A stretch of DNA of 58,839 nt, filler included, from Dugesia japonica (taxonomy: Eukaryota): the NCBI GenBank assembly GCA_001938525.1. It is 5 parts of 5 records of this genome, joined end to end, with 100 filler letters (N's around TTAATTAATTAA, not from the genome) between each part and the next. Parts side by side here need not be neighbours in the genome. Positions count along the whole stretch, not along the records: positions 21,293 to 29,796 come from MQRL01633855.1; 4 more parts are not named here. One strand, 5' to 3'. The notes under the pieces are model-generated. The model searched no databases. It saw only the letters and a list, made by a program, of their open reading frames with translations, and was not told the origin of the DNA. The translations under genes and the position numbers were made by a program. Positions 11,850-48,272 of the stretch are shown one piece after another. Numbering within the stretch: position 1 is the first letter of the stretch; the number at the start of each line of letters is the position of its first letter.

Positions 11850-11851
<2 letters not shown>

Positions 11852-16899: not shown

Positions 16900-19809
16900 A
16901 ATGCCTATAAATTTTAGACTGTCCCACCCTATGCAAAATGTCAAAACTGTCCCATCTAAAGCAAAAATAATTTTTAAAAAATCAGTAATGTCTCAATCTC
17001 TTAAAAATATCAAGACTACCATATCTCTTACAAAAATATCAAGACTGACCCATTTACTGCAAAAAATCAAGTCTGTTCCATCCTATTCAAAATATAGTGA
17101 CTGTCNATATCATGCAATAATATCANAATATTAAGACTGCCCATACCATGTAAAATATCAAGACTGCCCGATATCTTGTAATAATATAGAAACTGCCCAT
17201 ACCATACATAAATACCATGTAAAATATATGCACAAATATCAAGAATGTCCCATATTATACATAAATATAGTCTTTTCAAAAGAAATTTAATTAAATTTAA
17301 TTAAGTTTAATTAAAAATTTCCCCGCACCAAAAAATAAATTTTTAAATTTCCCGCCAAATATTTTTTAAATTTCTCACCAAAAATGTTTTAAATTTTTCC
17401 CCAAAAAAGTTTTCAAAAATATCAAGACATCTTCACACATCGAAAATTTTTAAAAACAACACTTCCCTGTTCAATAATAATCAAAAAATACTCAAAAATA
17501 CAAAAAATATACTGATGGTCAAATTTTTTGACACACCTATTATTTTTATAATCGATGCTTAATCAAAACACTTTTATAATTTATTTTGTATGGATATAAA
17601 ATTCTTTTTTAAAATATCTTAAAATCTTTTAATTAAATATACTTGTTTATTCAATATTTAGTAAATTTTGAATATATGTAAAAGTCAAATTTTTTGACAC
17701 AGCAAGTTTAAAATTTATTAAGTAATTTTTTAAGTTTAAATACAATTTAATTTCAAAGTATGTAAGATTTTACTCCAATAAGGCAAAAAATATTTGAAAG
17801 AAAACTGGCCATTCAATGGAGAACAGAAGGGCTTAGTTATTCGGTCATTGGGACAAGGTTGAATATTACACGCGATGCAGCCTGCAATTCATGCGTTTAC
17901 AGATTAAAAAAATTAGGATGAAGACAGGGTCGAAGTAAAAAATGGATAGCGCGTCTAAGTGGCGCGTAAAAAGGTAGATTTGTGTTTTTAATGAAAGCAA
18001 AGAAAAGATATATGCAACGAAATTAATAGAAGAATGTGATTGAGATGCATCAAAAAAGACCGTATTTAAAGAAAATTGATTTTATATACAAAAGAATGTT
18101 ATCCCAAATCCATTTGACAGCCGTCAAAAAGCAATTACGTATGCAAGGTACAAGATCATGGATTTCGATAAATCATAATTGGGATCTCACAATTTTGTCT
18201 GATAAAAAGCAGTTTTTTTTGGATGGTTCAGATGATTACAGATCTTATGTACACAAATCATCGCCAAGTTATTGTATTAAGAGGCAATGCAAAGGTGGAA
18301 GCGTCACGGTATGGATGATGACAATGCCAAACGGTCTGCTGTGTTTCAAGGTCCTGAAAAGAAAAGATGAAAAAAGAAAGATGAATTCTGATGAATACAT
18401 TAAGCTTTTGTCAGAAAGTACTGTGCTTATAATAAAATTAAGTTATGGAGAAAATTGGTGGTTCAAGGAGGATAATTCTTCGGTGCACCAAAGTAAGAAA
18501 GGGTAGGAATTCATGATAAAATCAAGTATATCAGTATAAGAATAGCCAGCAAAAGGCCCAGATCTGAATATTGTTGAGGACTGCTAGAAAATAATTTCAG
18601 ATATGGTATACGATGAAAACCAGTTCAATGGTAAGGATGGTTTAGTTGAAAAAATCACTGCGGTCATAAATCGTCTTAATGTCAACAAGCGATACAAAGT
18701 TATTGAGTTAAACAAGTCAATTAGATGTCACTTATGTACAGTATTAGAAAAGCATGTTGATCTTTACAATTGTTAAGTTTTTCCTATAAATAAATGAGTC
18801 AAAAAAATTAACTTTTAAATAAATTCAAAATTTACTAAATATGACTATATTATATAAACAAGTATATTTAAATAAAAAAGTTTAAGATATTTTAAATAAG
18901 AATTTTATATCCATACAACATAAATTATAAAAGTGTTTTGATTAAGCATCGATTATCAAAATATTAGGCGTGTCTAAAAATTTGACCATCAATATACTCA
19001 AAAATACTTTATAATAATTCATAAATTTAAGCAAAATACAGCATTTTTACTTAAAATAAAGATTTCGAAAGATTATGACGTCATAATCATCTAACAGAGA
19101 CATGTCAAATAAATCTTAAAAAATTTGATAATTAACTGTCTTTCCACCCATACCACTCTTTAACTCCTGAAAATTTTGTTTAACACTTTTATACTGCTTG
19201 CAAATATCAACTAATCAAATTAAAGCTCTCAAAATCAAAAATCAAAGCGCATTTGACATACAAATATTTTCCATCACATTACCTTTCCAGCCACCCATCA
19301 ACCAACAAAATCCATCAGCCCACTACAAACATACAGCCCACCAAAAAACTCCCCACAATAACTCATACGACTGTGCCAGTGCGTCACCACACTTCAAGCA
19401 AAAACCATCCATCCAATATTATAAGTCCTATAGACCAAATTCTTGTCCAACAACAAACAAATCTTAAAAACTCAAAAACAAATTATTTCCAAGATCTCCA
19501 GCTCACACTAGAGTCCAAACTCACTCTTTCACACACACAAACGCAAATTGACTTACTTTTTAAAAACCACCTTAACAACCCAAAAACACAAATTTAAAAA
19601 TACACACACACCACCAGGATCGAAGAAATATGATTCGATCAAAAAAAAATTTGATCTGATCAAAAATTCTTTGATCTTAAAAATCTTAGAAAAAAACTAA
19701 CCAAAAAATAATAGCACAATCGTAATGTGTTTCTGAGCCCCCCTCCGAGGGAGGGAACACTCCAAATATGTCATGCGCAATTGTTCCAGTGTACCACTAT
19801 CCTTCTACT
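16900..19809. mobile_element. Non-coding Polinton-type terminal region (right end at 19809), interrupted by a Tc1
   Basis: The reverse complement of the end is AGTAGAAGGATAGTGGTACACTGGAACAAT, matching the terminus family at 23312/23486/44246. GATC(T)GATCAAAAA repeats at 19620-19680 match the reverse complement of 29700-29750. AAAATATCAAGACTGCCC tandem repeats at 17000-17250. Left boundary unknown. Confidence 0.6.
17510..18994 (+). mobile_element. Defective Tc1-like element with long IR/DR terminal repeats
   Basis: About 190-200 bp TIRs, each bounded by GTCAAATTTTTTGACAC-type direct repeats, TA-flanked. Transposase motifs ILSDKKQFFLDG, GGSVTVW, FKEDNSSVH and PAKGPDLNIVE. Confidence 0.92.
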
Positions 19810-20250
19810 TTCATTTGAGACCATCCCCCATTGGCATCTTGATATATAGTCTGACATTGCGAACAAAAACTCTCCTATCCTTGAAAGTTCACCAACATTG
19901 TTATGAGCTGCTCCTTTTCAGAAATTTAGATCAAAATTAAATTATGTTGATTTTTTTCATTTTTGGAACTGAGAACTAATGGGCTTATCAGTCTTCGTCA
20001 TAAAATTCAATGCTTTATGATACGTTCTTGCTCTGCCCATCCAATTACTCTAAATCTAGCATCAGTGTCCAAAATCGTTTTGTCCCTATTATTTGGAAAA
20101 GTCATGATTCGAGTACTATACAATTTTATCTATAAAGATTGGAAACTATCCTCACATTCCTTTGTTTATTCAATGTTCTTTTCTTGTCGTGTTGTCGTTG
20201 CATACAATGGTGCTGTAGGTAAAGCAAATACTTTTATAAAATACCTGTAA
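19810..20250 (-). mobile_element. Gypsy RT-RNase H relic
   Basis: Minus-strand TAPLYATT..ECEDSFQSL..TILDTDAR..IG and KGAAHNNVGELSR. Confidence 0.6.
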
Positions 20251-21192
20251 TAATTTGTTAATGCTAAGAATAGAAATCAGAACGTAATCAGCGCATAAAA
20301 TTTTCGATTAATCAAATCGCAGAATTTCTTGTTTAGTTACGTAAAGTCACACACATAAATTTTACAAAATCAAATCGCTGAAACCATGTGTGCAGTTGAT
20401 CAAATTTCTCTACAAAAAAATTTTTATCGGGTAGGTTATTGGTTAATAATAATAAATCCAAAATATAATTAAATTGAAAACTTGTATTTTATAAACTATT
20501 ATCAGTTACTGTTTATAGAAAAAAGTAAATTTCAATGTTTAGTTATTTACAATTGCATTTATTACAAACATTAGTAATCTTATTTATTTGAAGAATATTT
20601 ATTTTTACATAGAGGAAAGTTTCTGAACGTCAATGTTTCTTTTTATAATTAATTTGGTAAATATTTATTTCATGAAAATTTATTTACTAAACATCATTAT
20701 AATTTAAATAATATTAATGAAATAACTAATCATTTACATTGAAAAATTATATGTAAAAATAATATATATATATGTATTGAGAAATTTAAGAGAAAAGATT
20801 AAAATTTAGCATTTAATTTTGATATTAAAGCTCAATTTATCGGAAATACAAGCTTTCAAATTAATGAGAAATTTTTTTCAAATAAAAATCCAAAATTTAA
20901 ATAATTTAATTGAATCCAGCTATTTCAATAATTCACTAAAAACATCTTCAAAACATGGCTAATTTTTTCAATTTTATCAAAATTGAATTTAAAATTTTTG
21001 TAAAATCTCTTTTCATTTTAAATTAGAAATATTAATATACGATAAAATAATTATTCATAAATGTAATAATGAAATTCGTTGATATTACCTTCATAATACT
21101 TTCATTATCATTAGTTTTCTTCATGGGAAACTACCTAGAAATAGCCAATAATGTCAAGGAATACACTAAATTCACTTTAGAGAATCAATTTG

Positions 21193-21292: not shown

Positions 21293-21858
21293 ATTATAAT
21301 AACAATCAAACAGATGAAACAATAAATATTGATGAAAAATATGAACTGTTGGATTTTATCGATACTATTGGTGACGAAAATGTTTCTGTAGATAGTCAAG
21401 TTNNNNNNNNNNNNNNNNNNNNNNNNNNNNNNNNNNNNNNNNNNNNNNNNNACGAACGTATGGAAATGGATAGCAGATCAATTTATATTGGAAATGTTGA
21501 TTACGAATCAACTGTTAATGATCTTGAAAATCATTTCAAAGGATGTGGAATCATTAAAAAAATAACTATTCCAGTCAATAAATACACTGGATTTCCCAAA
21601 GGATTTGCATATATGGAATTCGATAGTGCAGATTCTGTCGAATTATCAATGGTTCTTGATGAGAGTGAAATNNNNNNNNNNNNNNNNNNNNNNNNNNNNN
21701 NNNNNNNNNNNNNNNNNNNNNNNNNNNNNNTCAATAAAAGTCGATTAGTTTCAAAGAAGAATTTGATTAAAGAAATAACAAACGAAGGCAAATTCTCTCC
21801 GAAATCTCTTAAAACAGGATATAAAGGAAAAAGAAATAACAGATTTACTCCATATTAA
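21293..21858 (+). CDS. PABPN1: Nuclear poly(A)-binding protein (PABPN1/PABP2), 5' end missing or uncertain
   Basis: RRM: MDSRSIYIGNVDYEST..LENHFKGCG.IKKITI..NKYTGFPKGFAYMEF..SVELSMVLDES. C-terminal RFTPY resembles the conserved PY tail. Confidence 0.85.
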
Positions 21859-22139
21859 ATTTTACTATTTTTCTTTGTTATTTTTAGTTATGTATTTTCT
21901 TTAATTATTATGTTATATTAACATTTCAATATATTTTTTATATATTTGAATCAAATTTAGTGATGTGGAATAAATAATAAAATCGAATTAATAAAAATAA
22001 CTCATTCAATATTTATCATAGCAGCGGTTATTTAGTATATATATAACCTTGTCTACATCTACCTTGTCCACTTTTAAACTAATACTGTTCTGTTGATATA
22101 AATTTGAATCTCCTTTTTGAATATTTTATAAATTATAAT

Positions 22140-22490
22140 ACATGCTAGTGCAGTCAAATCGTACAGACATTGTAATGCGACTATTATACTCATTACTTAA
22201 CATTTATTCCATCAAAGAAGAAGTCATTTGACACGTAATTTAAATGTACAATACTTGGTTCTAATTAAAAATTCAAGAGATCAAACAGTTGTTGGTTTTC
22301 TAGCAAGAAAAGCTTATGCTAATAATAGAAAATTTCTTATTGAATAATTTCAAGATGCAACAATTAATCCACATGGTTATATTTTCTCGACTTTTCACAA
22401 CAATGTCCACACGAACTGAGGATGAGAACCGATATTTTCAATTCTGAAGGTGTTACTGTGTATAAACAAACTAAGTAATTATTATACTTT
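22140..22490 (+). pseudogene. Packaging ATPase C-terminal part
   Basis: LFHQ..RNLNVQYLVLIKNSRDQTVVGFLARKAY..FQDAT..PHGY..ELRMRTDIF. Confidence 0.75.
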
Positions 22491-23148
22491 TAAAATGACA
22501 AAACTTGAGAAAATATTAGTTGATCAAATCAAAAGTATTCCTAAAATGAAGAAAAATAAACTATCAAAAAAGCGTATTGTAAAAAAGAAAAAGAGTGAAA
22601 AGAGGAAACAAACTAAACAGCTGAACATTTTAAAAAACTTTCAAAACTGTATGGTAAAAAATTGTCGAACGTAAACAGAAAATGGAAATCATTATAAATA
22701 AATAAGGGTAAGCTATATTATTAAAATATAAAATGAAAATACAACGAAGTATTTCATTTTTATATCATTAATTCAATCTACAAAATCGGTGAGAATGTAA
22801 ATTTTTTTATGGATGATTTAATTGAAATTATTATAAATATTGTTCGTGGAAATGTAAATGTGAGTAACGCTAGAAGAAAAGTATTGAAAAAACATAAAAG
22901 AACACTATTAACACTTGTAAATACAAAAAATTGAAAATTGATAAGGCGAGTAATACGAAATAGTCAAGGAGGTGGTTTTATAATAGCATTACTACCAATT
23001 GCATTAGCAGCATTTGAATTAACTCATTTTAAATAAACAATTGTTGATTTTATAGAAGCATTATAATGATAAACTGATTCAAAATAAACAATAGGCGGTT
23101 TACAATCATTTCCTAATTTTGATTTAAAATTTTCAACTAATTGTTGTA

Positions 23149-24336
23149 ATGAGCAAACTAAAGACAATATGGACGGATGCAAAAAATCCCGTAGGTTTGC
23201 GTGGCGTAGAAAAATTGATGAAAGCAGCACAAAAAACAAAAACAAAGACCAAAAAGTGGTTTTCGAAAATTTCGTGGTTTTTTGTAGAACAAAAAATTTG
23301 AAGTATAGTATAGTAGATAGATACGTGCAATACTGGAACAGTGTATTTAGTTGGTTTTTAAAACAACCAAAATAGGTTGAAGAACAAAAATTTGAATAAC
23401 AAAATATTGAATAACAAACCCCTTCTCCCCTGTTTTTCTTTTTGTCAAGACAAATACAACTGTTCCAGTGCGCACGTATCTACCTAAACAAACCAATATT
23501 GAAAGGATTTCCAACAAGAGAATATAAGGCGTTTGGTATTGACGATTTATGGCAAATGGATTTGATGGAGATGATCCCGTATTCAAAAATAAATAAAGGA
23601 TACAAGTATATTTTAACATGTATTGATGTATTCAGTCAATTTGCAAGAGCTATTCCAGTCAAATCAAAATCATCTAATGATATGGAATCGGCAATTAAGT
23701 CAATGTTTAAAGATGGACATCGGATAATTTGCAAACTGATTTAGGTAAGGAACTTTACAATTCTTTTATCACATCTAAAAATAAACCATTATACTGTATT
23801 CTCTCAGTATAAAGCGGCACATTTTGAGAGATTTAATCGAACATTAAGAGATGCTTTGAAAAAATACTTTTGCATACTGGTAATGAAACCTGGATAAATG
23901 TGTTGACAAAATTTATTCATAGTTATAATCATTCAAGCCATAAAGGTTTAAACAATGAACTAAAACTATGGTTATCGCGTGATCAAAATAAAGCAAAATA
24001 AAACCAAAATATAAAGTCGGTGATCAGGTTAGAATCTCAAAAATAATTGAATCTCCATTCCTTAAAAATTTGATAGTAATTGGAGCGATGAAGTGTTTCA
24101 AATAACAAAAATCAATACTTAACAAAATCCAGTTATGTATGTAATTAAAAATTATTAGAATAATATCATACAAGAAAAATTTTATGAGCAAGAATTACAA
24201 GTCATTCTACCTCCTACTATATATAGAATCAGAAAACTATTAAAATCGAAAGGAACAAAAAAGAATAAACAATATCATGTAAAATGGTATGGATATCAAA
24301 ATGCAACTTGGATATTAGCATCACAGTTAGTTAATA
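23149..24336 (+). pseudogene. Polinton retroviral-like integrase with C-terminal chromodomain
   Basis: IDDLWQMDL, YKYILTCIDVFS.FA.AIP.K.K, QTDLGKE, ERFNRTL, KYKVGDQVRI, FYEQELQ and YHVKWYGY..TWI. Interrupted by the 23312-23486 insertion and by frameshifts. Confidence 0.9.
23312..23486. mobile_element. 175-bp mini-element with Polinton-type TIRs
   Basis: Left AGTAGATAGATACGTGCAATACTGGAACAGTGTATTT; right (reverse complement) TAGGTAGATACGTGCGCACTGGAACAGTTGTATTT. Splits the integrase between KYS and LNKP, which are contiguous (EYSLNEP) in the 32609-32800 paralogue. Confidence 0.8.
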
Positions 24337-24906
24337 ATGACATCAAATAATTTCTTTACACTTTTACCTAGTGATAGCTGTTTTCTTATTCATCCGAATA
24401 ATAATGCTAGTACGTTCATTGTAGAGTTTCAAAATTCGATTTATATGAATGGTAATTGGCATTGTTGGATTTTACCTTTGTATATCAAACATTTCCATTA
24501 TATAGCAAGTCTAAAATTCAATACATGTCTACAAAAAATATATTAAATGAAATAACTGTTACAATTGATCACAAACAACAATCCTTGAGTGTAAGTAAAA
24601 ATAAAAATAGTAATGCCTATGTAGCGTTTAGTGGTTATTTAACTATTAAATGTGACTATCCTTATGTTGCCATATTTGAAAAGGAAATAATTGCAAATAA
24701 ATTAGTGTTCTCATATAAGATTAACCAAATGAAACCCGGATATTTTCCTATTCTGTGTTCAGCATATAAAGAAGATTCGCCAATAGAATATGTAAAATTT
24801 AAAATAGAATATACTCTATTAAGTTATCATACTATACAGTTGACAGATGAATTAAACAGAACAGAAATTGAAGAATTAAGTAAATATTTAACAGAAAGTG
24901 GTTCTG
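24337..24906 (+). pseudogene. Polinton minor capsid (penton)-like N-terminus
   Basis: MTSNNFFTLLPSDS..HPNNNASTF..I.MNGNW/ALLDF matches the F..LPS.S..P.N..S.F..L.G.W.VAL start of this family. Frameshifted and truncated. Confidence 0.65.
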
Positions 24907-25212
24907 AATAGTATGTAAATGACGGCTTCTCGTCAAGGTTGTAACCTTCCTTTACATACATATATGTCTTGGTATAAAATAATGTATAATGAATATAAAT
25001 AAACAACTTCTCGTGAAGCCGTCATTTACACACTACTTGGATTGATGGTTTGAATTTTTGAATTTTAAGATTTTTAGACTTAGATTTTGATTTTAGATTT
25101 TTTGAATTTTGAAAAACATATTAAAATTTCAAAAGAGATGTTGATGGCCAATATGAATCTTTAATAAAACGATTTGATTGAACACAAATAAAAAATGAGT
25201 TAATACAAACTT

Positions 25213-25401
25213 AGAGTATGGAAAAAAGTATAGAATTAAAGTATAGAATTATGTAAATACAGTATGGAATTAAGAGAAAACAGTATGCTGTTAAATTTTA
25301 TATTNACAAAGAGTATGGATAAAAGTATAGAATTAAAGTATAGAATTATGTAAATACAGTATGAAATTAAGAGAAAACAGTATGCTGTTAAATTTTATAT
25401 T
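25213..25401. repeat. Tandem duplication, about 97-bp unit x2
   Basis: AGAGTATGGA.AAAAGTATAGAATTAAAGTATAGAATTATGTAAATACAGTATG... at 25213 and 25310. Confidence 0.9.
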
Positions 25402-26508
25402 AATAAAATGTCTTGTAATAATGTGAATAAATTAGATACAACTAAAGCAAAATTTTATAAACTCTTAAAAAGTTATAATTTTATAGAAATTTCAGTTTTG
25501 GGTTTTTCTAAACAAAATAACTTACACGAAAAAACTGTAAAAAAATATTTAAGAGAATTTAATATTCCTTATAATAGAAGAGCAAAGATTAAAACTTTAA
25601 AAAGAGATGTTAATGGTCAATATGAATCTTTAAAACAAAGATATGAACGGTTGCAAAATTCCATTAGACCTGTTCAAAATCAACAAACACAAAATCAACA
25701 AATACAAAAACCAAAGATAGATTAGCGGAAAATGAGTGATTCAGATTTTCTAAAAGTTGTTGAAAATACTGTTCGCAAGAAATTATAGAATTTTATTTTT
25801 TCAGTAAAGAAAATAGTTAGTAAAAAAGTAGTTATTGCTAAACCAAAACAACAAGAGTTGTGTATAAATTCTTTATATAATAGTATAAATAATTTAGAAA
25901 ATCTTGTAAAATTTACTATCATGGAAATTGAAAGTTTTGCCAAATGTGAAATAACAAATAAAACAGCAAAAAAAATTTAGCTCTTTCAAAGAAAATGTAT
26001 TTACAAGTAGAAACTTTTAATGAATGTGAGAAGTTTAAAATATTATTAAGTATTATGGTTTCTAAATTTTGTGAATCAGAATGTAAGAGTAAATAAATTT
26101 TCTAAACAAGACGCAAGAAATATTGAAATTATAAAACAATTAGAAATTGATTACCAAAAAGAAAGGGATGAAAATAATAAATTAAGGGAACAATTAAATT
26201 TAGCTCAAAAACCAAAGTTTATTGAACATCCAGGTTTAAAACTTACATGATAAAATGGGAAGAAGATGATGATCTAATTATAACAAATGAAGATTGTATA
26301 AATATTGCTAAAAAAAATAAAAGAAATTAGTGATGATTTATGTGAAAGATTAACAAGATTAAAAGTTACGGAAGAATATGAAGGAGATATAAAAAGAGTT
26401 TACGCAGCTAAAAGCGATTTAGCAAATTACACAGTAAAAACTTCAAACTCAAAATAAGAACCTTTAAAGTAGTTATTTTTTTATACAACCAAATTATTTA
26501 TTTATAAA

Positions 26509-29500
26509 ATGAGTAGCTTCGCAAGTGAAACGCAAATCTCAAATATGAATTTTCAAAGACCTGAGTGTTTCAGCGTTAAATTTTAAATGTTATGTTTGTA
26601 AAAAGCTTTTTAAAAATAACGCGGTGTTGTCGTCGCATATCCAATCTCAAACCTGTGCAAGATCAGTATACAATTATTACATATGTAACATTTGTTTCAA
26701 AAGATAAGCAAGTGAAAAAGGCTTGCAATTGCATAAAAACTCCACAAATTGTGGTATTGATGGTAGGTCTAGAGTTGCTTAAAATTGTAATTATTGCAAT
26801 TTAACTTTTACTTGACAAAATCATGCACAATCACATTTTAATAGTGGAGTACAAGAGCGTGTTTTAAAATTGAGAGAAGAAGAAACTAAAAAATTATTTG
26901 ATGAATTACCTGGAAATGATGCAATTTATTTTGAAAAGAATGAAACTCGAAAATTATTTAAACATCTAAAGAATATAAAATATTACAAAATCAAATATTT
27001 TAAAGAAAGTAAAATTGAATTAACTAAAAATGTAAAAAAATTAAATTTTACATTAATAACTTGGTTTAAAAAAGAAATTACTAAAATTGCTGATATTTAT
27101 TTTGATTATTCAAAAGAATTGATGTTACGATTGAGTGTAAATTGCAATTATACTAAAGAAGATGAAGAAAAAGTATTTAATTTATATTCAAGTAATGAAA
27201 GAATTACTATCAAAAGCGATGTAAAAATTATTGTGGAAGAGTTATTAAATCAACTTCAAAGATACATGGAAAATGAAGATCAAAATGAAACCGGCTGGAA
27301 TTTGGATTGTATTGTTGATTTTAAAATTGAACTTTCAAAATATCAATCATTAGTTGGTGGTTCCCATGTTAATGCAACTTATAAAAAATGACCTTTTATT
27401 AAACCAGGTGTAATTAATATTAAAAATAAAGATGATTTTTGTTTTCTATATGCAATTTTGGCTCATAAACATGTATTTGAAAATAATCAAAATAGAGTTA
27501 CAAATTATTATCCTTATTTAAACGAATCAAAAATAAAATCCAACGGACCACACCAAATGAATTTTCATGCAAGTATTGATGATGTAAAATTATTTGAAAA
27601 ATTAAACGATTTTAAAGTAAATGTATTTGAAGTAAATGAAAACGTTAAAATCTATCCGGTTTATATTTCTCATTATAATAGTAATCCATCATCAGAAATA
27701 AATAAATGTAATTTATTATTTTTTAAAGGTAAATAAAGATAAATATTTTGTGTAGAAATGTTGGAGTTTTTGCAAATACTAATAAAAATAAAAACCATTT
27801 GTGTTTATGTTGTATGAATTCATATAGATTTATTAATTAATCATCTAAAGAAATGTATTAATCACGATTCATTTAAAGTATATTTTGAAAATGATAAATA
27901 TTTTTCATTTAAAAATAATTAATTTTCAAATGAATTACCATTTGTAATTTATGGTGATTTTGAAAGTTGGACTAGAACAATTACCAATAAACAAAAACCA
28001 TTATCTCTAGGAATTTATATCAAAAGTAAACACCAACATTAAATTCAAAATGAATATAAAGAATTTTATGGTGGAAGTATCCAAGGAGAAACCCTCCATG
28101 AAAAGTTCTTTGAATTTTTAGAAGAAATAAAAATAAATTAAGTGATATAAAAGAAAATAAATTAATTGAATATTATACTAGAACTAATCATCCACAATTT
28201 ACAAATCAAAACTGTAGATATTGTAATAAAAGGATAACTGAAAATCTAGTTATTTATCATGAACACTTTAATGGGGAATTCAGAGGTTATGCTCATCAAA
28301 TTTGTAATTTACAAGACAAATCAATAAAAGATATTTTTATACCTTTTTATTTTCACAATGCTTCTGGTTATGACAATCATCTATTTTTCAAAGAATTATT
28401 AACAAAATATCCAACAGAAATAAAAAGAATAATTCTTCATACAGATGAAGTGTACATTTCCTTTGAATTTTGGCATATATGAATTTTAAATTTTTCAAGA
28501 ATGTGTCCTTTTACATCGACCGACACAATGTATATTATTAAATCAATCAGGAAAATATAATCACTTAAGATTATTTAATCTTGCTCCAAAGAAAATATCA
28601 TTTACATATGAATATGTTAAAGGAGAAAATATTAATCAAGTAATTAATTTATTAAAAAAAGTAATATTTCGACAAAAGAAGATTTTAACAATAAACTAAA
28701 ACAACAAAAAATAACAACAAGAATACAATGAATTTTTACAAGACTTTAATCAATTTGGAAATTTATTTGAATATATGTTATATTACATGAAATTAGATGT
28801 AATTATTTTAGCAGATTTCTTTGAAAATTTCAGAGATTTGTTTAAATAATTATAGCATAGAACCAAGCTATTGTTACTCAGCTCCAGGTCTAACTTAGGC
28901 TGCAGGAATGAAATTCACAAAACAGAAACTAAAGTATGCACAAGAAGACACATAATATATACTTAAAAATAGAAAAAGGTGTTAGAGGTGGTTTTTCAGG
29001 GGTTTGTGAAGATAATGATAATATTAAAGATCCAAAATATAAAAGAGTAAATCAAGCTGAAGTGAATGATTTATTAAATTTATTATTACAAGGAAAACAA
29101 ATATTTTCACAAGATTATTTTGAAGATACATTTTTCAAATATTTAGATGAAAACAGTCTTTATGCAAGCTGTATGACAAAGCCTTTACCAACTGGTGAAA
29201 TAATTGAATCTGACAACTTGGAATATAGAAAATCAACCCCAGAAATTAATTACATTTATGAAGTTGATTTAGAATATCCTCCAGAAATTCATAAAAAGAC
29301 AAAATACTTTCCATTAGTTCCAGATAGAATAAATATTAAAGAAGAAATGTTAGGACCATATCAATTAAGCTTTTTTTAAAAGAAATTATCAAAGAAAAAT
29401 CTTAAATTAACATTGAAACAATTTGATAAACAAAATTATATTGTTTGGGTTCCACAATAGATTTATATTTTAAATCAGGAATGAAAATTAAAAAAATACA

Positions 29501-29602
29501 TTCAAAATATACCCTTCCTACAAAACCATGGTTAAAGGATTACATACAATTTAACATTGATCAGAGAAACATATCAAAAATAAATAATGATGTATTTGAA
29601 GA
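26509..29602 (+). pseudogene. Protein-primed family B DNA polymerase, 3'-truncated
   Basis: INIKNKDDFCFLYAILA, PFVIYGDFES (ExoI), FHNASGYDNHLF (ExoII), YYMKLDVIILADFFENFR (ExoIII), GVRGG, YLDENSLYASCMTKPLPTG and YEVDLEYP. Many stops and frameshifts. Confidence 0.92.
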
Positions 29603-29796
29603 AGTAGGTAGATGTTAGCGCACTACACGTCCACCCCCTCCCCCCGGTGGGGGGGACGTGTAGTGCGCTAACATCTTGATTATTGATTATCGATTTTCGA
29701 TCTGATTGATTTTTGATCGGATGAAATTTTTTTTTGATCGGATCAGAAATTTTTTTTTAAATTAATAGAAAAATAATTTTGTTTAAATGGTGATTT
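29603..29796. mobile_element. Left terminus of a further Polinton-type element, with a perfect 23-bp hairpin
   Basis: AGTAGGT followed by AGATGTTAGCGCACTACACGTCC (29610-29632), a C/G-rich loop and GGACGTGTAGTGCGCTAACATCT (29654-29676). It cuts off the pPolB reading frame. Confidence 0.75.
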
Positions 29797-29896: not shown

Positions 29897-30219
29897 GAAA
29901 TATATAACAATAAAGTTTTATTTTAAATGACTTTACTTATTTTTTATTAAACATTTGCCATCGTTTTTTGCAAATTTAAACAAATCTTTTATTTAACTCT
30001 ATTAAGTTTTAGTTATAGCTTAGAATTTTTTTTTGCAAGGCAATAAAAAATCTTTTGAAAAATTCCGGATATATATTGATTTCTTATAACAATAACTTAC
30101 TTGCAATAATGATGATATTAATTTTAAATATATAAATCTTAAGCTTATAAACTTCAACAATACAATNNNNNNNNNNNNNNNNNNNNNNNNNNNNNNNNNN
30201 NNNNNNNNNAAGACAATAA

Positions 30220-31087
30220 GTTGGTCTTAAAATTTGATGATGGCAAGTTAATTAAAGACTCAGGAGTTTTCGATCTGCAATTGATTGAGATTCCTAATGG
30301 GATGATAATAATCCACTAAATTTTTGGAAATCTAATCAGTTCTTTAAAACCTGCTCAGATTGCTGACATTGCTAGGAAAGTAATTTTTACACGAAAAACT
30401 GTTGATATTTTGAAGCTTAACCATAAACTGTTGGAGCTGTTGCCAGAAGAAGAAACTGATCATAGATTTGATAATTTCTGATGATCAAAATAACACTTGA
30501 TTTCCCTGCCGAATATTTAACATGCGCAAAACTTATCTAGGATGCCGCTGATTTACTTGAAACTATGTTGTCAAAGAATCTACATTCTAAGAAAGCATTA
30601 TACCACGTTACAATATTAATAGTCTACCGTCTGCCTTAAAAAAATGTATTAAAGCTGACAACATTACTGGCAGTAATAAAGGAGAATACATTTGCATTAT
30701 TCGAATTGATTTAGTACCAAGCCATAGTAATCTACCAATCAAAATGTAATTTCGACAGTTTCCTGTATTCTTGGCATTCTCTATGACCATTAATAGAGCA
30801 CGAAGCCCAACAATTGATCAAGTTGACTTTTACTTTTTGAATTTGTTTTTGTACATGGTCGACTCTACGTTGCACTTACTCGCTTCAGAAATCACGAAAA
30901 TCTTCGAGTCTTTATCAACAAATCACTTTATCTGTACCACTTTATTGTAATTAAATAATTATTAAATTAAAGGAAACTGTGGGTTTTCATTTAAATAGTT
31001 GTTTTTTAAATATTTTGATTTGAAAAAAATATAACACAGAATAGTTAAAATTTATTCTCTTCCGTTATATTATCGAGTTACATCTAG
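30220..31087 (+). mobile_element. Helitron RepHel (PIF1 helicase) C-terminal relic
   Basis: FPAEYL, ITGSNKGEYICIIRIDL, RQFPVFLAFSMTINRARS.T and FVHGRLYVALTR. Possible CTAG|T 3' end at 31084-31087. Confidence 0.8.
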
Positions 31088-31160
31088 TTATTTGATGATC
31101 CAGTGGTAACAGTCCTAATCAACTAATCAATGGTGGGTTCAAATCCTGTGAATGATCATT
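31088..31160 (+). pseudogene. Degenerate tRNA-derived sequence (tRNA pseudogene or SINE head)
   Basis: A-box-like TGATCCAGTGG and B-box GGGTTCAAATCC at tRNA spacing, followed by a T-run. Confidence 0.45.
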
Positions 31161-32359
31161 TATTTTTTTTACACTTTGTTTTTTAATTTTATTTCATTAT
31201 TGATAAAGATTGATAATTTTAAACCTATTTTTTCTTATTCGTAAAATTCTCTATCTAATAGATATTTTAATGATAATTTCAGTAATGCTAGTTTTGTTTT
31301 ATTTTCAATCAAATTTAATGATGACAATTTGTTATTTATTTAGACGATAGAAATGATTTGGACTGCTGTAAAAAGCTATATAGTAAGTTTATCTTTATTT
31401 ATTTTTGATGTGTGATGTTACATTACAATTACAAATTAATTGAAATTGAAATTAATTTAAATTCAAATGTGAAATTTGTAAAACAATAAAATTTGGTTTA
31501 GCTAGAAAATAATTTTGATTAGAAAAATTTTCGTTCTTTGAATTTATTCAATAGTTTTTTTTATAAAGTTCTTATTGAAAATAAATTGTCATCGGATGAA
31601 TTTCCTAATGATCATATTTTTTTTAATGATTTTCAATGATCTGAATTTGACATTTACAACTCAATAAATATAAAATAATTTTTGGTATTAATATTGTCAG
31701 TAATGAAAAAAACGACTTTACCATGGAAGTTCTCATATCCTGATCCTTATCCTTCATCAACCGCAAAAAACAAAAAAAATCATTCAATATATTATGTGAA
31801 TACACAATCGGTAACGGTTAGTATTAAGTTTTTATTTGTTAACAAACAATCAAATAATATCGTTTCTTGCAAGCCTCATGTCTCAAACCAGTATATTTTT
31901 ACGTGTTATTACGTGTTACAGTAATAAACTTTACTTTTTACAGCATTTTAAATTTTCAGTTTTTTGTTCATCTATGTTGTACTTTATAGGTTCCAGATAT
32001 TTTTCTGACCAATCTAGAACCAATAATATTTTATACACACCAAAATTATAAGTATATAAAGAAAGTTTAAATTATATTTTATTATTTTTCTTTTGAAAAT
32101 CATAAAAGTATAGAACTTTTCTTCATAAAATCATAATTGTATTGGAACAAGTATAGTTTTCTTCATAATAAATTTCATGTTTTTTTTATTTAAATGTTAT
32201 TTAACTTATAAAAATTTTTTTATTAAAAACAATAATAAAACTAATTCAAATCTGTATTCTCACGCACTGGGATCCATGTCATCAATCATAGTTTAAATTC
32301 TAAATTCTAAATTAATTTATTAATTAATATACTTTGCTTATAAGAATTCGAAATTAATA

Positions 32360-34114
32360 ATTATGTTTAGATAATAAACAAGTTTCACTTTTTGAATTGA
32401 AAAGTTCTTACCCAAATCTGTTTGTAAATTATCTGGATGTCCATTTTTAAACATTAACTTGTGTGCGGGTTCCATATCATTAGCAAATTTTTATTTTACT
32501 AGAACAGCTTTAGCAAATCTACTAAATACATCGATACATGTCAAAATATACTTGTAACCTTTATAAATCTTTGAATATGGAATTATCTTCATTATATACA
32601 TGTGGTCATCAATACCATGTTTTATATACTCTTGTTGGAAATGTTTTCAACATCGGTTCGTTCAGGCTGTACTCTAGTTGACCCGATAACCATTTATTCG
32701 TCTTTTTTTTCGATTTTTCAGCTGCTTCCATCAATTTTTCTACACCTCGAAAACTTGCTGGGTTTTTTGGATCAGTACATATTGTCTTAAGTTTCCCCAT
32801 TACAACAATTCGTTGTAAATTTCAGGTCAAAATTAGGTAATGGTTGCAATCCACCCATTGTTTATTTAAATATTGCTATAAATCAATCATTGTTTATTTG
32901 TATAGTTAGTCCTAATGTTGTTAATGTAATTGGTAATAATGCTGTTATAAAGTCACCTTGATTATTCATCATTACTTGTCTCATCAATTTCCTATTTTTT
33001 TAATTTACAAGCGTTAGAAGTTTTTAATGATTTTTCAATGCATCATTTTTAACATGGCTAAAATTTAAATTACCACGAACAATGTTTACTATAATCTCAA
33101 TTAGATCATCTAAAACATGGTGGAAATGATTGTAAAATTCTCATTCTAGAGAATTTGAATGATTTAATCATGGCAGTAAAAAACGGAATACTTTATTTCT
33201 AATTTCATTTTATTTCAATATAACATACATATCATCGAATTGTTTATAATAATATTCATTTTCCATTTATCATTTTCAGTTTTTCCGGTACTTTTTGCTA
33301 GGTTTTTAAACTTTTTCTTGTTTGGATATGTTTTGTTACATGATTGCTTCTTATAAGAATTTTTCTTATAATATTTTTTTCGTCTTTTAACAGCAGGCTT
33401 TTTTCGTTGTTTAACATCGACATCGGAAACTAAATCAACTAACATTTTAAATTTTCTTAGATTTTTCCATTTTCTATAAAATTAGAGAAATTACCTATTT
33501 GGTTTATACACTGTTATCTCATTTGGACTAAATATATTAGTTCTCACTCTAGTCATTTAGACACTGTTGAGTAAAGTCGGAATGTAAATATCCTTTAAGA
33601 TTTTCTGTTGCATCTAGAATTGATTTAATCATAAATTGTATGTTATTTGGATATGCTTGTCCTGCTAGAAAATCAACAACAGTCTGACCTCTAGGATTTT
33701 TGAATAGAACCAAATATTTTACGTCTAAATTTCAGGTTCTATGGCTACCTTCTTGATGAAATAGATTTTGAGTAATAAATATCAGTCACATTACGATGTC
33801 TTGATTTCTTTGTGAATAAATTATTGAAATCGCTTTCTTTATCAGCTTACTGAAGTAGGTCGTAAACAACAATAACATCACCAGATCTCAATCTTTTGCT
33901 CGAATCTTTATCGAAACCATTTATAGTTTTACTTTTATTATTACAAAACTCAGATTTAGTCAGTCCGATCTCTTCATCTGCGCTCCTATGCCAGTATGTT
34001 TTTAAATTTCGACTTGAATAAATTTGATTTCAACCATTTACATACAAACAAAGTTTTCCCACTACCACTAGGTCCAACAATTTAATAGATTGCATCATTT
34101 CTTCATTTATCCAT
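32360..34114 (-). mobile_element. Polinton fragment C (ATPase, basic ORF, GGDF peptide, integrase start), same lineage as A
   Basis: ATPase VGPSGSGKTL, FTKKSRHRN and FITQNLFHQ..YLVLFKNPRG. Integrase MGKLKTICTDPKNPASFRGVEKL, YKYILTCIDVFSRFAKAV and LQTDLGK. Confidence 0.88.
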
Positions 34115-35390
34115 CTTGTTTTAAATTTATTTATAATTCAGTACATTGTTTATATTTGTTTTATCGAATCAATTAAATTAATTCTATTAAAACCCCAATG
34201 TTCTACATTAATTCATTAATTCTGAAAAACAATATTAATTAAAGAGGTAAAGTGTCCCAAAAAGTAACCAAGAAAATGAGCTTTCCTATATTTAAACTAT
34301 GTCAATTCAAAGTCAAAAGTGACAAGTTTACAATTATATTCTTCATATTAAGAAAATGTAGAATAATAGTTTGAGAAACATCAATTAATTTTTAGACAAA
34401 AAAGAAGCTAAATTAGACGAAAATGAGTTATCTTCGCTCTGGAAGATCACAAATGATCCGAACAAGAAAAACTGAAGAGAAAAAGTCATAGGGAACTAAA
34501 TTCAGCACCAAGAAATTGATATTCCCAACAGAAGGCCTGCTAAAAGGGTTTGAAGAATAGGCCAATGAGGGGCCAGGAAAGAAACGTGAGACTAAGCTCT
34601 GAAAATCACAAGGTCTCTTAAAAATAGACACCAATAGTAGAGCAAAAATACTTAGAAAAAATCAAAAAATTGGTATCACCACTAATGGAAATCAAAAAAT
34701 TTAAAACAAAAATAGAACGCCAATGAAGGCTGTGTCAGGGTGTAACAGAAAATTGTATATAAACTCCCCTGATTTTAGTCGAAAAACAACTAAAAAACTA
34801 TTTTATTATGGCTCGTTTGTGAACGTATAGAAAAATTTTAATTGTGACATTGTACGATTACGGATGCCAAATTGCGTAGAGAAATTTATAAATAACAAAG
34901 ATACAAAAGTCTTTAACTACTAATTACTTTGGATCAATTCAGATTGTTAAGGGACTCACATGTATCGTTGAATGAAACGATCCAAGAGCAAATGCATCGC
35001 GTTTCGCAAGGAAGCCGATGCTTCTCATGCGCAAGAGCGACTCTGAAAAAGTCAACTAGAGTACATTGCTGAGATCATCCGGTCCCTCCATGACTTTGAA
35101 GATTAACTGGTCGCCAATGTCTTAGAACTGAAAAAACGCATGACACTTGAACCATTGATGGTGGATAAGTCGACTCAAACTTCACGGTCATATTGTGTTA
35201 TGCTCTTGCTTATGTATAAAATAAAATCTATGTTGAACCTTTCTGAATAGCGTACAGTTGAATCATTTAATTTTTCATAATTGAATTAAATATAAATCAT
35301 TTAAATAAACTGTTAATCATCTATTTCTTTATATTGCCCACAATACAATTACCAACAAGCCTTCGTCGATGTCATCGTCTAATATAGAAG

Positions 35391-35609
35391 TTGTTACTCG
35401 AACGTCACGTCAAACGACAAAACGAGCGAGCTCTTTTGCGGCAATTGACACAAGGCAATCGGTTGATTAAGAAACGTGATCTTATTGTCAATAAGCAGGG
35501 TAAGTTTGCGGAACACACCAAACAAATACTTACACACAAAATCGAATTCCTTCAGCAGTACATTGCTGATTTAGCCAACCGCTTTGAGCAAGAGACATGG
35601 GCGCGATAG
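35391..35609 (+). CDS. Orphan coiled-coil ORF (possible element accessory gene)
   Basis: Locally GC-richer and amphipathic (TKQILTHKIEFLQQYIADLANRFEQ). No recognised family. Confidence 0.3.
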   Translation: MLLERHVKRQNERALLRQLTQGNRLIKKRDLIVNKQGKFAEHTKQILTHKIEFLQQYIADLANRFEQETWAR

Positions 35610-35934
35610 AATAGCGACGACGACAAAGCAGCATTTAGCTTCATGTCTGTAGAACCTACCCAGTGGTTAGAACCGGGTTCTCTGGATTATATGTAATTTA
35701 GAACAAAATCTATCTGAATTTCAGTATATTATTTTATTTGATAAATGAAATGGGAAAATAACAAACCCTAAAATAAAAGTATGGAGTGTGTACGTCAAAT
35801 AAATGATGGAAGTCAACCGCTCTATACTGAAGACCTAATAAAGGACATTAGGTAAATTCTTGAAGGAATACCATGAGGACTGATTATTTCCACAGCCACA
35901 AATTTTTTTTAAACACCAACTCAGGTGGAAACCC

Positions 35935-35967
<33 letters not shown>

Positions 35968-38490
35968 GTGCTGGTGAGCAGCTAATATTGCCCGAGGGGA
36001 GTTTACTTAACTACTTGAACATTTTGGTTAATTTTAAAAAAAATCATTAATTTTAGTTGATTTAAACAAAATAATTAAGTTTGACGTATTTAAACAAAAT
36101 AAATATGACGTCATTTCACACTCAGTTTGAAAAGGATGACGTCATCAATACACACTAAGTTTTGTAATCTAAAAAAACGACAAAATAATTGGCCGGAAAT
36201 GTTTTTTCTTTGAAAAGGATGAATTTTATTGCAATATTTATCATCTCAATTCAATCATAACTATTGTAAAGTACTTTTTTTCTTTTAATTTATATTAAAT
36301 TTATTGAATTTTATGTAATTTGAGTTGTAAGCCTTTTTGAAAAAAACATTAAAACAGTTTTTCAAAAAATAGCAGTTTGCTGTTTTTTAATTTTTTTACA
36401 ATTAAAAGCAGTTTTACTGTTACGGTTTCTAAAAATTTAGTACCAAAGAATCATTTTTTCTTCAGTTATTTTAGCTGATAATTCATTTAAAAGTATAATC
36501 ACATTAATTATTTTAAAAATTTGAATTATTTTAGGGATTTTTTATTTAATTAATCATAATATTATTCAAATAATTTCTAACTTTCATGATTAAATATGAT
36601 TAAATGCTTGAATAATTTAAGCATGTATTGACTTTATATTAATGATTAATATTATTTTAGAAAACAAATTTGCCAATTAAATCAGTATTTGTTGAAGACA
36701 ATGAAAATATTAAATGGTTAATTAATTTATTGTAATTATACATTCCTTTNNNNNNNNNNNNNNNNNNNNNNNNNNNNNNNNNNNNNNNNNNNNNNNNNNN
36801 NNNNNNNNNNNNNNNNNNNNNNNNNNNNNNNNNNNNNNNNNNNNNNNNNNNNNNNNNNNNNNNNNNNNNNNNNNNNNNNNNNNNNNNNNNNNNNNNNNNN
36901 NNNNNNNNNNNNNNNNNNNNNNNNNNNNNNNNNNNNNNNNNNNNNNNNNNNNNNNNNNNNNNNNNNNNNNNNNNNNNNNNNNNNNNNNNNNNNNNNNNNN
37001 NNNNNNNNNNNNNNNNNNNNNNNNNNNNNTCCTTGTACATTTTTTCTCTAGTGAGTTTAATTCTAGTTTTAAAAATTTATTTTGGTATGTTTTACGAAAA
37101 CTAAAATTAATGTTTTAAAATTCTGAGGGTTTTTGAATGTTTCATATAATACGTTTTAAAATTGCTCTTTCATGGAATTTCTCTTTTCATATTGTCTTAT
37201 TCATAAATTTGAAAATTTTTCTTTACTGATTTTTGATTTAATATTATAATTTTTTATCCTGATTCAGTATAATATAAGTAATTTTTTTGATTAAAAACCT
37301 TTAAAAAATTAATGAATAATTTTTTTATTTTAGTGAGTTGCAATCTTCAATAGATAATTTTGAAAAAATCATTTATTTCATCTCAAAATGTTTATTTACA
37401 ATTTTAATTATTTGATTTCAATTTGAATTTAGTTGTTGAATTGAATGAGAAAATTTTCGAATTCAATGATAAAATAAGATCAATACCATGGAATCACATT
37501 CATGGATCAAACTATATAATTTTCGGAAAGTAAAATGAGTTATTTTTAATGTTTATTTTAATGTTTTTGAAGTCCACTGATTAATAGTTTGGATATTTTA
37601 CAAGCTTTAATTGGGCGACATATTTTTTATGAAAGCAGTTTGACGAGAAATTTTTCAATTATCACTTGTAATTTTAATTCGATCCATTCTGAGTATTTTT
37701 TACTAAAAAATGATAATAAAATGGTAAAAAATAACGATAACAAAGAAAATAATAATGTAAGATAGTAGTTGAATGCGTAAACATCAAATCAGGAAATGAC
37801 ATAATCAATAGATGTGAACTTTCAAACAATGAAGCTGAGATTTTCTCATTTTCAAATGAGATGAAATTTTTATATATGTAGTTACATTTGACATATTGTC
37901 AGGACTAAAAGCTACGATAAGCCTCACTAATTTCTTTTTTTCACGATCTGATTTGTTTGCTTTGTACTAGTTCATTTTCGTCATCCTTTCGCGTGATTTC
38001 TTTATTCAACTTTCTTTTAAGAGATCTTGACTGAGCCCCCGAAATTTCTGTTGGGTTATTAGGCTTTTGATGTTAGCTATATTCACTCCTGCATATCTAA
38101 AATTTTTGATGCTGTTTTTTTACAAAAGACTGTCTGGAGGATGATACCTAGTAACCACAGAAATTTGTGATGTCTTCTCCTACATCATGATCCCCGAGTT
38201 CAGCGAGACAGAAAGTTCTGATTGAAATTGGCTCTTATTTTTGTCAAATGTGTGATATGACCATAATAATTTAGTGTCCAGTGGCTGCTTCGATAAAAAC
38301 TACTTTCATTTTTTTGAATTCTTTAATTTCATCATGTTTGGGTTCCCTTCGATATGTTTGTTTTAAACATTTTATTTGCATCATTTATCGCTTAATTAAT
38401 TATTTTATTTTAAATAATTTATCGTTTATGTGATTCAACATTAAGTGCTAACAACGACATTTCTCAAAATATATTAATTCATTCACAGGA

Positions 38491-38970
38491 TCACACTGCT
38501 GATTCTACTACCTCCTCTGTCTCCAGCGTCTCTAAATGACCTCTAAGCACAGGCATTGTAGGTTCGATTTGTTGGCAGATTCTTCTACCGGCCTGATTAT
38601 GGGTGAGTAGGTGGTTCTTCAGCACCGTCTGACGATCCGTGATGGTTGGGGCTCGTATTAAATGCTCCGATGCACGTGACAACAACTCTGCTAGTGCTGA
38701 GGTATGTTGTTGTTGATCATTCTCCTGATAATTGAGCTGCTCTTGTAACTGTTCAACATGAGCTCACAGCCTCCGTATTTCCTCCTTTTGTTCCTGGATT
38801 TCGATGTTTCGTGTTCTTTTTTTATCTTCAGCTACCCACCAAGGGTCTGGATCTGTTCCTGCTACATTCCATAAATCATATAGAATCGGCATATCATTGC
38901 ATTTTCCGGAAGTAAACGACCATATTTTCAGCGATTTCTTGACTTCTGATAGATTTATCCTTCTGGACAT
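38491..38970 (-). pseudogene. Orphan ORF of about 160 codons with one in-frame TGA
   Basis: ORFs 38764-38970 and 38491-38685 are in frame and bridged by AHVEQLQEQLNYQENDQQQHTSALAE. GC-richer than the flanks. Confidence 0.5.
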
Positions 38971-39768
38971 CTAAATCACAATAATTCATCTTTAAATAAT
39001 AGTCAGTTGCATTTATTCACGAGTGAATTTTTTTAAAATTCCTTCGTTCTACAATCGATTTCTCATATAATTATTGTTATTTCAGCGAAACAGGAGTTAG
39101 AATTCCGCTGTGAAGACTTAGTGCCTCAGGGAATTCTACTTCCTCCTTCGCGATGCGTGTGGATAGTTATTAGGCATGATTTTAAGTCGCGCAATTCATT
39201 TTAAATATTTATTTAAAGTCTCTATAATCAAACATCAAAATATCATGAACAAAAGACTACTATAAGATGAGTTCTTTAAAAAAATTAATTTCAAACTAAA
39301 CATTTTATATAACTAAATTGATTAAACGAATAATAATTAAATAAGAATAAAATCATAACATTATCAACAGCCTACATTTAAAATATGTTATCAATAACTA
39401 TTATATCTTATTCAAACATAATCCTCAACAACTTTAAGCTTCCTTCTTTTAAGATCTATATTTTTCCATTTTATTATCATTACATTACAACAAAGTATCT
39501 TATAAGCTATACTCCAAGACCTTGTTCGATGCTATACATAAATTCCTTTTCGACAGGAAATCCTCTTTCGACTTAACAACAATTAATTGATATTATAGTT
39601 ATTATAATACGTCTTGATGTTAACTGATTTTTATTATTTTATTAAATAAATACTGTACTAGATTTATTAAGATATTCTTATCATTTTGTCGAATTATAAA
39701 ATCANACATTATGTAAAATTTCATGTGTGAAATATTAGTTATTTCATGATCAATATATAATTCATAAT

Positions 39769-39845
39769 TAGGGCATGCAAATTTACCGGTAAACGGTAAT
39801 TATTTTTAAAAAAAACTGGTTAACCGGTAAATACCGGTTTTTTAT
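39769..39845. mobile_element. Solo hAT-type terminus
   Basis: TAGGGCATGCA followed by clustered ACCGGT/AACGGT subterminal repeats. Confidence 0.4.
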
Positions 39846-40243
39846 TTTTAACAGTTAAAATTTAAAGTAATTTTTTTTGTGGATTTTTTTACTAAAAACA
39901 AAATAATAATAAACAATTTAATGAACTCCATTTTCTTTTATCATCTTAAATTGCTTACTTAAATTGTTTATTTTAATTTATTTCATAATTCTTTCATGAT
40001 AGTTGAACACTATTTAATTTCTTTCGATATTTATTTCAATTTATTTCATTCTTTCGATCTTTATTTAACCTCTTCTCTATTTATTTCATCCTATCTGAAC
40101 AATTTCTTTCATTTCTTTTGATATTTATTTTATTTGAATAATTTGTTTTATTCTTTCCATCTTTATTTAACCTTTTCTCGATATTTATTTCATAATATTT
40201 CATTTATATTTCATTTCATTTCTTCTTTTATATTAATTCAACA

Positions 40244-47045: not shown

Positions 47046-47049
47046 ATAA

Positions 47050-48267: not shown

Positions 48268-48272
48268 AAAGG

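Follow-up and report, generated by a model that had tools for sequence, protein, structure and literature searches.

A terminal hairpin formed by an inverted inner copy of the end in a likely Polinton/Maverick element of Dugesia japonica

To our knowledge, the replication of Polintons has never been observed. The standard model, as given in a figure legend of a recent preprint (10.64898/2026.07.28.741278) and in the accessible text of PMC8097293, pairs the two far ends of the element. The available part of PMC8097293 describes a 5'-AG end motif of the (AGT)2 or (AG)3 type, with (AGT)2 in vertebrate Mavericks. In the sections available of the same preprint (10.64898/2026.07.28.741278), palindromes are described in terminal repeats, adjoining the duplication, for endogenous virophage subtypes 1, 2, 5 and 6 and for PLV subtype 4 of Halocafeteria seosinensis. 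Inverted copies near an end are also described for rolling-circle elements in the accessible part of PMC4067079: DINE-1 has an inverted copy 3–22 bp from its 5' subterminal repeat, together with central repeats, and the Helitron1 3' end has CTRR with a 16–20-base palindrome about 11 bases upstream. Template switching, as described in the available part of PMC8604942, homogenises arms and inverts spacers.

The window analysed here is a stretch of 58,839 nucleotides, filler included, made up of five AT-rich scaffolds from D. japonica (1–11684, 11785–21192, 21293–29796, 29897–43699 and 43800–58839). Searches using Pfam and tblastn show three decayed Polinton gene blocks and an extra pPolB gene. 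The high-depth block at 22168–24908 (+ strand), which hosts two of the end junctions discussed below, comprises an ATPase-like piece, an integrase, a chromodomain and the next frame, as seen from Pfam matches to rve and Chromo, tblastn matches to frames of the distant loci L014, L015 and L026, and depth. Its paralogue lies at 32383–33842, and the third block (46287–56973) contains PLA2-like, integrase, A32 ATPase and pPolB genes. Pfam places rve integrase genes at 23415–23741 and 47091–48157. Within the window no integrase is seen between a pair of the ends studied here, the rve genes belonging to the host or to other elements. The extra pPolB gene (27245–29597, + strand; PF03175 and PF02945) is decayed, with several frame breaks, and is truncated by the end at 29603. 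By tblastn it matches residues 175–999 of the 1248 in protein P0001 and then breaks off; its paralogue at 53254–56224 continues. Within it, an endonuclease VII-like stretch (28114–28479) scores below the cut-off.

Some further features of the window were observed alongside these genes. Summed contig depth over 22145–24908 exceeds that of a single-locus stretch by about 10,000-fold. If depth reflects copies, the expansion is unusually large; large Maverick expansions in planarians are described in the available part of a Dugesia preprint (10.64898/2025.12.11.693146). The Polinton block on the last scaffold is bounded not by AG ends but by a 107-bp inverted duplication (46061–46167 and 57208–57314, 98% identity). 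This duplication has no Pfam match, and by eye we take it to resemble hAT-type transposase coding sequence. Short tandem arrays, presumably carrying E2F-like motifs, lie directly upstream of pPolB at 56976–57190 and deep inside the 19809 element at 17320–17413. The non-coding interior of the 19809 element also holds an inserted element with 150-bp inverted ends (17508–18996, 92% identity), which judged by eye is probably of the Tc1/mariner type. Broken frames at 30300–30950 gave no Pfam match and look, by eye, similar to the C-terminal motif of a PIF1/Helitron helicase. An independent fold-back element with 85-bp arms lies at 8335–8547, and gave weak miRNA-like matches in Rfam over 8349–8533.

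The structure at 29603 agrees with the original prediction, which described a 23-bp arm after AGTAGGT and a perfect inverted copy of it around a C/G-tract loop. The element begins with a 7-base terminal motif of the AG type (29603–29609, + strand) that is unpaired in the fold. This is followed by the 23-bp outer arm (29610–29632, + strand), a C/G-tract loop of 21 bases that is itself a near-palindrome (29633–29653, no strand assigned; seen in the fold and in contig differences), and an inner arm (29654–29676, − strand) that is a perfect inverted copy of the end minus its 7 terminal bases. The DNA fold has an energy of −46.8 kcal/mol with a z of −11.6, and none of 200 shuffles was equally good. 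Among the 276 N-free 180-base tiles of the window this hairpin ranks first, with a score of 51 against 45 and 40 for the next two. Perfect arms of at least 20 bp within 220 bases were found at 29603 only, among the 11 listed, outside the fold-back element (here 8342–8540). Inside the hairpin lies a GATC-rich subterminal array of very high depth (29677–29796, + strand), cut by the scaffold end, which matches the interior of the 19809 end at 33 of 37 positions (score 59, compared to a maximum of 38 in 2535 random stretches of the window). On the strand with its 3' end at the terminus, the fold leaves a 7-base unpaired 3' tail, so this fold cannot prime untrimmed, and the suggestion of self-priming is not supported at this end.

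The hairpin was followed in public Logan contigs, with arm and junction variation judged from the differences listed in the difference tables. Both arms or the loop are bridged in two samples (X1 record 1, X3 record 11, and X5 records 17 and 18), and in a third, X7, the arms are covered with gaps; almost none of the sampled words were present in runs X7–X11. Coverage of the arms in three samples rules out both an assembly artefact and a single event as the source of the hairpin. The hairpin contigs X3 record 11 and X5 records 17 and 18 end at 29602/29603, with X3 record 11 and X5 record 17 continuing into other flanks, and the pPolB contigs X3 records 9 and 10 end at 29602. Position 29603 marks a genuine mobile-element terminus, nested inside the pPolB gene.

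Summed depth on the arms is 307–511 in X1, 90–116 in X3, 176–226 in X5 and 84–107 in X7, well under 1% of the 59,000–410,000 seen on the adjoining array at 29711–29746, a ratio to be read in the light that summed contig depth is not copy number and that a low-complexity array may attract unrelated contigs. Arm depth also counts the 29603 arm sequence only, and other subfamilies may carry other hairpins. With these caveats, the 29603 arm sequence is that of a small subfamily. Changes at 29648 and 29653, which would lengthen the stem, occur in most of the covering depth in X1, X3 and X5, with the change at 29653 seen in eight X1 contigs. The commonest arm change, at 29658, breaks a pair and accounts for 205 of 324, 81 of 122 and 176 of 245 of the depth in X1, X3 and X5, respectively. 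No compensating change at its partner 29628 is among the differences listed for these runs, which leaves compensatory change at this pair unsupported. Among the loose ends listed for X5, one cell of three contigs has the same end motif with a shorter and different route to the inner arm. One further copy (X3 record 11 and X5 record 18, from one sample) fits ungapped in terminus, arms and interior, and has ten changes in 29639–29653 that place a purine run beside the inner arm. Counted by hand, about 17 of the 21 letters of its loop match the reverse complement of the window loop, compared to 11 (ungapped) or 13 (gapped) in the same orientation. The loop of this copy, at one locus in one sample, thus looks inverted, as in flip and flop.

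A second hairpin stands at the left end of a pPolB-bearing element, at 24907–25037, where the same design as at 29603 had been proposed. The inverted repeat is significant (z −6.6, p 0.0005), with 16 bp matching perfectly and about 33 bp once mismatches are allowed, but the loop is long (about 60 bases) and AT-rich, without a C/G tract, so the design differs somewhat from that at 29603. The case relies on the stricter of our tests, because an AT-rich tile at 14941 scores 45 under the looser score, near the 48 of this hairpin. The outer arm occupies 24909–24942 (+ strand) and the inner arm 25003–25037 (− strand), the latter complete to its (AGT)2 motif. Behind 24908, other copies of the host block diverge in 27 contigs of X1 and 25 of X5, and in X1 the depth across this position drops about 40-fold, from around 76,000 to 2,000. 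Reading inward, the hairpin is followed by a TTTGAA-rich subterminal array (25038–25180, + strand; five sites in 143 bases, compared to 0.33 per 100 window-wide), small frames and then pPolB at a depth of 3,000–17,000 in X1; for comparison, the single-locus stretch 21293–21860 has a depth of 19–37. One of the small frames (25354–25722, + strand) has a weak match to a frame of the pPolB locus L017 (E 4e-4, 32% over 53 aa), and no homologue among proteins of 67–216 residues. In each run, position 25041, immediately interior to the inner arm, is spanned by 25–32 contigs, of which the best positioned have 26–54 letters on their shorter side. Several copies therefore share the junction between the inner arm and this interior.

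The third hairpin is part of a captured fragment. A 221-bp element-end piece (23266–23486, − strand), consisting of outer arm, loop, inner arm and 46 subterminal bases, sits in the 5' part of an integrase gene, with its inner arm at 23312–23348 (+ strand) and its outer arm at 23452–23486 (− strand). The arms are about 36 bp long around a loop of about 100 bases (p 0.0005; z −6.4 for 23266–23490). Taken alone, neither 23312 nor 23486 folds (z −0.18 and 0.14), and 23312, which had been counted as a terminus of its own, is instead the inner arm of the 23486 hairpin. Contigs join 23265 to 23487 in four of four runs, with 21 other letters between them where shown, and the paralogous integrase copy at 32394–33801 presents the empty site. 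The insertion removed 21 target bases and made no duplication, and its loop is at single-locus depth (0–13 at 23418–23423). This looks like a repair-type insertion of an end fragment rather than transposition of a two-ended MITE.

All five outer ends were assessed in the same way, by comparing the first 45 bases with the next 155 (2000 first-order resamplings) and by taking the best split of 180 bases (200 dinucleotide shuffles). The ends at 29603, 24907 and 23486 reach the floor of both tests. No significant hairpin was found at 19809, where a degenerate version had been proposed for 19715–19809 (z 0.07 and −0.54; p 0.74 and 0.56) and where the sole stem is a 6-bp C/G one at 19741–19755, nor at 44246 (z 0.91 and 1.24; p 0.68 and 0.81). 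The former is a sister end with the same GATC array as 29603 (19560–19809, − strand), and the latter, likewise a sister end, carries the shared motif along with a C tract (44110–44246, − strand). The statement that each end can fold on itself therefore applies to three of the five ends. As for recurrence on several contigs, the end motif does occur on three of the five scaffolds, but all three hairpins are on the scaffold 21293–29796. The proposed terminus consensus is likewise shared in part: it is present at 19809, 23486 and 44246 with 6–7 mismatches in 26 bases, while 29603 has its first part only and 24907 shares the AG/TAG start and not the remainder.

The inner arm of each hairpin matches its own end and no other, stopping 7 bases from the terminus at 29603 and 0 bases from it at 24907 and 23486. 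Arm and loop lengths vary widely, at 23/21, about 33/60 and about 36/100, respectively. The order is end, spacer, inverted end and interior, unlike the end-to-end palindrome of a circle or a tandem junction. Of the five outer ends, those at 23486, 24909 and 44246 lack the terminal AG, which is present at 29603, 19809 and both complete inner arms; its loss may be due to processing of two bases at the end or to junction repair. Some smaller observations also concern these ends. Each of the three hairpin ends stands at a junction that falls within Polinton genes; they share one 8.5-kb scaffold, with three levels of nesting, and the flanks of the hairpin-less ends 19809 and 44246 have no Polinton match. 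The ends at 19809 (19787–19797) and 44246 (44224–44234) have in common a 4-bp stem that lies 11 bases from the terminus and encloses a variable loop of 3 bases, and the 23312/23486 arms contain another 4-bp stem, whose loop is GAA. The four-tract G-quadruplex pattern is absent from all end regions. A frame at 19184–19594 was rejected as spurious, being on the C/A-rich strand with no credible family or Atlas match.

That the ends are Polinton termini, as originally predicted, is probable. The contig flanks show them to be true ends; AGTAG starts are found at 29603, 19809 and 23312, and 25037 has an exact (AGT)2. The pPolB gene at 27245–29597 lies directly inside the 24907 end at a depth of the same order (3,000–17,000 compared to 2,000 in X1), which favours Polinton terminal repeats. 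The scaffold of the 29603 end stops 194 bases inside it, so no gene is assignable to that end, and none was found inside the 29603, 19809 and 44246 ends within their scaffolds. The window holds single ends only, with no complete element having two ends and a 6-bp duplication. On this indirect evidence the 29603 element is most likely a Polinton/Maverick. The ends do not form an independent MITE family with target duplications of its own, as no supporting duplication is seen at the flanks. The further idea that each hairpin presents two integrase-recognisable ends fits 24907/25037 and 23312, but not 29603, where the inner arm lacks the last 7 bases.

We give an even chance to the explanation that the 29603 hairpin, in this likely Polinton/Maverick end, arose by copy-back and has since descended in a small subfamily, probably without being needed for replication. 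Terminal-protein-primed synthesis at the linear end would stall after 45–140 bases, at 29603 in the self-complementary C/G tract. The new strand would then fold back, or hop to the displaced strand, and copy the end in reverse, falling off at the terminus or shortly before it, and would afterwards return to the template. Such copy-back predicts an inner arm that copies its own end, stops 0–7 bases from the terminus and differs in length between subfamilies, and this is what the inner arms at 29603, 24907 and 23486 match. Further template switching from one arm to the other, at a later time, would maintain their similarity and might also leave the loop inverted. The presence of hairpins in only three of five ends suggests an inherited copy-back accident rather than a required telomere, and the absence from the sister ends 19809 and 44246, the low share of depth and the unrepaired 29658 pair argue that the hairpin is dispensable. 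Against this reading, the eight X1 contigs with the 29653 change, and the 25–32 contigs over 25041, indicate that the hairpins are family features and not one-offs, and three unrelated ends each having an inner copy is much for an accident, so that selection may have acted.

That last point is what keeps a functional reading in consideration, in which the hairpin is a working part of a Polinton origin and the displaced strand's 3' end folds back locally. We regard this as unlikely. At a 29603-type end it would mean a duplex origin rebuilt for terminal-protein priming without the far end, leaving the 7-base tail free; at the 24907 and 23486 type it would mean self-primed synthesis with hairpin-transfer resolution, complete arms, and flip and flop loops. 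The reading stays because three different end sequences are each paired with their own inverted copy and because one loop (X3 record 11 and X5 record 18) looks inverted; flip/flop ends mark rolling-hairpin replication in the account available in PMC8195378, and the accessible part of 10.64898/2026.07.28.741278 proposes the same model for virophage and PLV termini. Against it, two of the five ends have no hairpin and the depth share is low, the change at 29658 breaks a pair with no partner change among the differences listed, and a Pfam search of the 141 frames in the window, which come from broken genes and incomplete elements, gave no match to HUH, Rep or any other nickase. The inverted loop, at a single locus in one sample, would also arise from intermolecular template switching or from unequal loss from a longer palindrome, and the palindromes in the available sections of the preprint accompany non-pPolB replication genes (10.64898/2026.07.28.741278). 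Pairing of the 3' end to its last base, as in parvoviruses, is not seen at 29603 and would be feasible at 24907 and 23486 provided that the free form retains the missing AG. We think it unlikely that some pPolB-encoding Polintons of animals have, just inside each end, an inverted origin copy that serves as a local duplex origin or primer with flip/flop loops. If they did, they would combine protein priming of the adenovirus type with fold-back ends of the parvovirus type, with the shedding of mini-elements built in.

Mini-elements also figure in a different explanation, that the hairpins are 75–175-bp internally deleted, MITE-like units moved by integrase or joined to other ends. The segments 24907–25037 and 23312–23486 can each be read as left end, spacer and right end, but three of the four two-ended readings have no flanking direct repeat of at least 4 bases and the fourth has one shifted 4-mer. 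In copies whose outer flanks differ, the inner arms still lead into the same subterminal array, and the piece at 23266–23486 keeps 46 bases past its inner arm, replaced 21 target bases and has a loop at single-locus depth; together these make the explanation improbable. An origin as ends of non-autonomous rolling-circle elements (Helentron/DINE-1, or Helitron 3' ends on the other strand) seems to us a distinctly unlikely alternative too. The lack of a visible duplication suits it, as does the 21-bp spacer, which falls within the 3–22 bp of DINE-1 (PMC4067079, in the part available); on the other strand a T follows the end in four of five cases, and the 4-bp stem 11 bases from the 19809 and 44246 ends recalls a 3' end. 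The arms are however 23–36 bp long, not 12–15, and no second subterminal repeat is found on the same scaffold beyond chance-like single matches, the scaffolds being short. Insertion at TT is not seen, the base before the end being A in four of five, and for a Helitron1 3' end CTRR is absent at four of the five ends on the other strand, with just the 4-bp stem at 11 bases in two. The 24907 end has pPolB inside it, the Pfam search gave no Rep/helicase family match, and 25037 has an exact (AGT)2. Fold-back stubs of Penelope-like retroelements would account for the shape and for the target loss without duplication at 23266–23486. The five end regions were searched on both strands for what we take to be the minimal hammerhead core motif; there was no strict core, and one loose AT-rich match fell in a host frame outside the element. 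Given also no Rfam ribozyme match, a fixed AG-type end and pPolB inside, we consider such stubs highly improbable.

Copy-back remains our preferred reading, and under it the ends would be a fossil record of linear replication, with the polymerase copying back to the terminus; the alternative is a second origin design. Either way there is a countable test in an element-rich genome, in the share of young copies with a hairpin, loop orientation and compensatory changes.

Distant relatives were compared using 27 IMG/VR pPolB loci, aligned from the 120 listed of 1221 pPolB homologues. None of their 37 record ends scores above 40, compared to 48–58 for the three hairpins, and as only about seven of these ends look like true termini (L013, L018, L020 and both ends of L014 and L027), the comparison shows only that the hairpin is not universal. 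Perfect or near-perfect palindromes of 30–77 bp were observed near pPolB in IMG/VR loci, away from record ends (L020 4343–4372, L008 13212–13243 and L011 5755–5831). A scan of viral contigs with the end pattern gave no matches, and its five metagenome matches and one prokaryote genome match are at about chance level, all without hairpin or array. Direct protein scans of the window frames against viral contigs found no relatives.

Several known systems share part of this design. Parvovirus and AAV ITRs, with their flip and flop forms (PMC8195378, in the part available), have the terminal fold-back in common with the present ends, and possibly the inverted loop seen in one copy here; they differ in pairing to the last base and in being nicked by Rep, whereas the 29603 fold has its 7-base tail and the window yielded no Rep-like gene. 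DINE-1/HINE Helentrons, as described in the available parts of PMC4067079 and PMC11417382, likewise have an inverted copy near one end, internal tandem arrays and no duplication, but their 12–15-bp subterminal repeats at both ends, TT target, 3' stem-loop and Rep/helicase partner were not found here. Casposon terminal repeats (PMC4046053) also belong to self-synthesising elements and some contain internal palindromes, although casposons are prokaryotic, use a Cas1 integrase and, in the text available, have no function assigned to the palindromes.

There is also a likeness to Polinton/Maverick repeats themselves (PMC8097293 and PMC10748475), which have the same AG-type end, matched exactly as (AGT)2 by the 25037 arm, and pPolB directly inside, as at one end here, with integrase, ATPase and PLA2-like genes around and decayed nested copies; an inverted copy of the terminal 23–36 bp is present here and unmentioned in the parts available of those papers. 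The word 'hairpin' is absent from the main texts of both. No description of a terminal hairpin in pPolB-bearing animal Polintons was found in the accessible passages of the literature, including those of PMC8097293, PMC10748475, PMC6431247, PMC11296320 and PMC8502044. A candidate precedent (10.1101/2022.05.25.493380) was discarded, since in its available text 'hairpin' refers to protein beta-hairpins. The idea of a terminal hairpin, for which the original prediction knew of no description as a Polinton feature, is nevertheless not new to the wider group, because a hairpin-priming model exists for virophage and PLV termini in the accessible sections of 10.64898/2026.07.28.741278. The Halocafeteria elements resemble ours in having a palindrome by the end, in being integrase-using relatives of Polintons, and in that both a hairpin-priming proposal and an accidental-annealing alternative have been put forward for them. 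As far as the available text goes, there the palindromes occur in all complete copies of the subtypes, preferentially with non-pPolB replication genes, in a protist and with gaps of up to 10 bp; here they occur in three of five ends, beside pPolB, in an animal-type genome and with loops of 21–100 bp. The hairpin is a real feature, terminal palindromes themselves being already known in Polinton relatives, and ends of this kind extend to a pPolB-bearing animal element what has so far been reported, in the sources available, for virophages and PLVs of protists that mostly lack pPolB.
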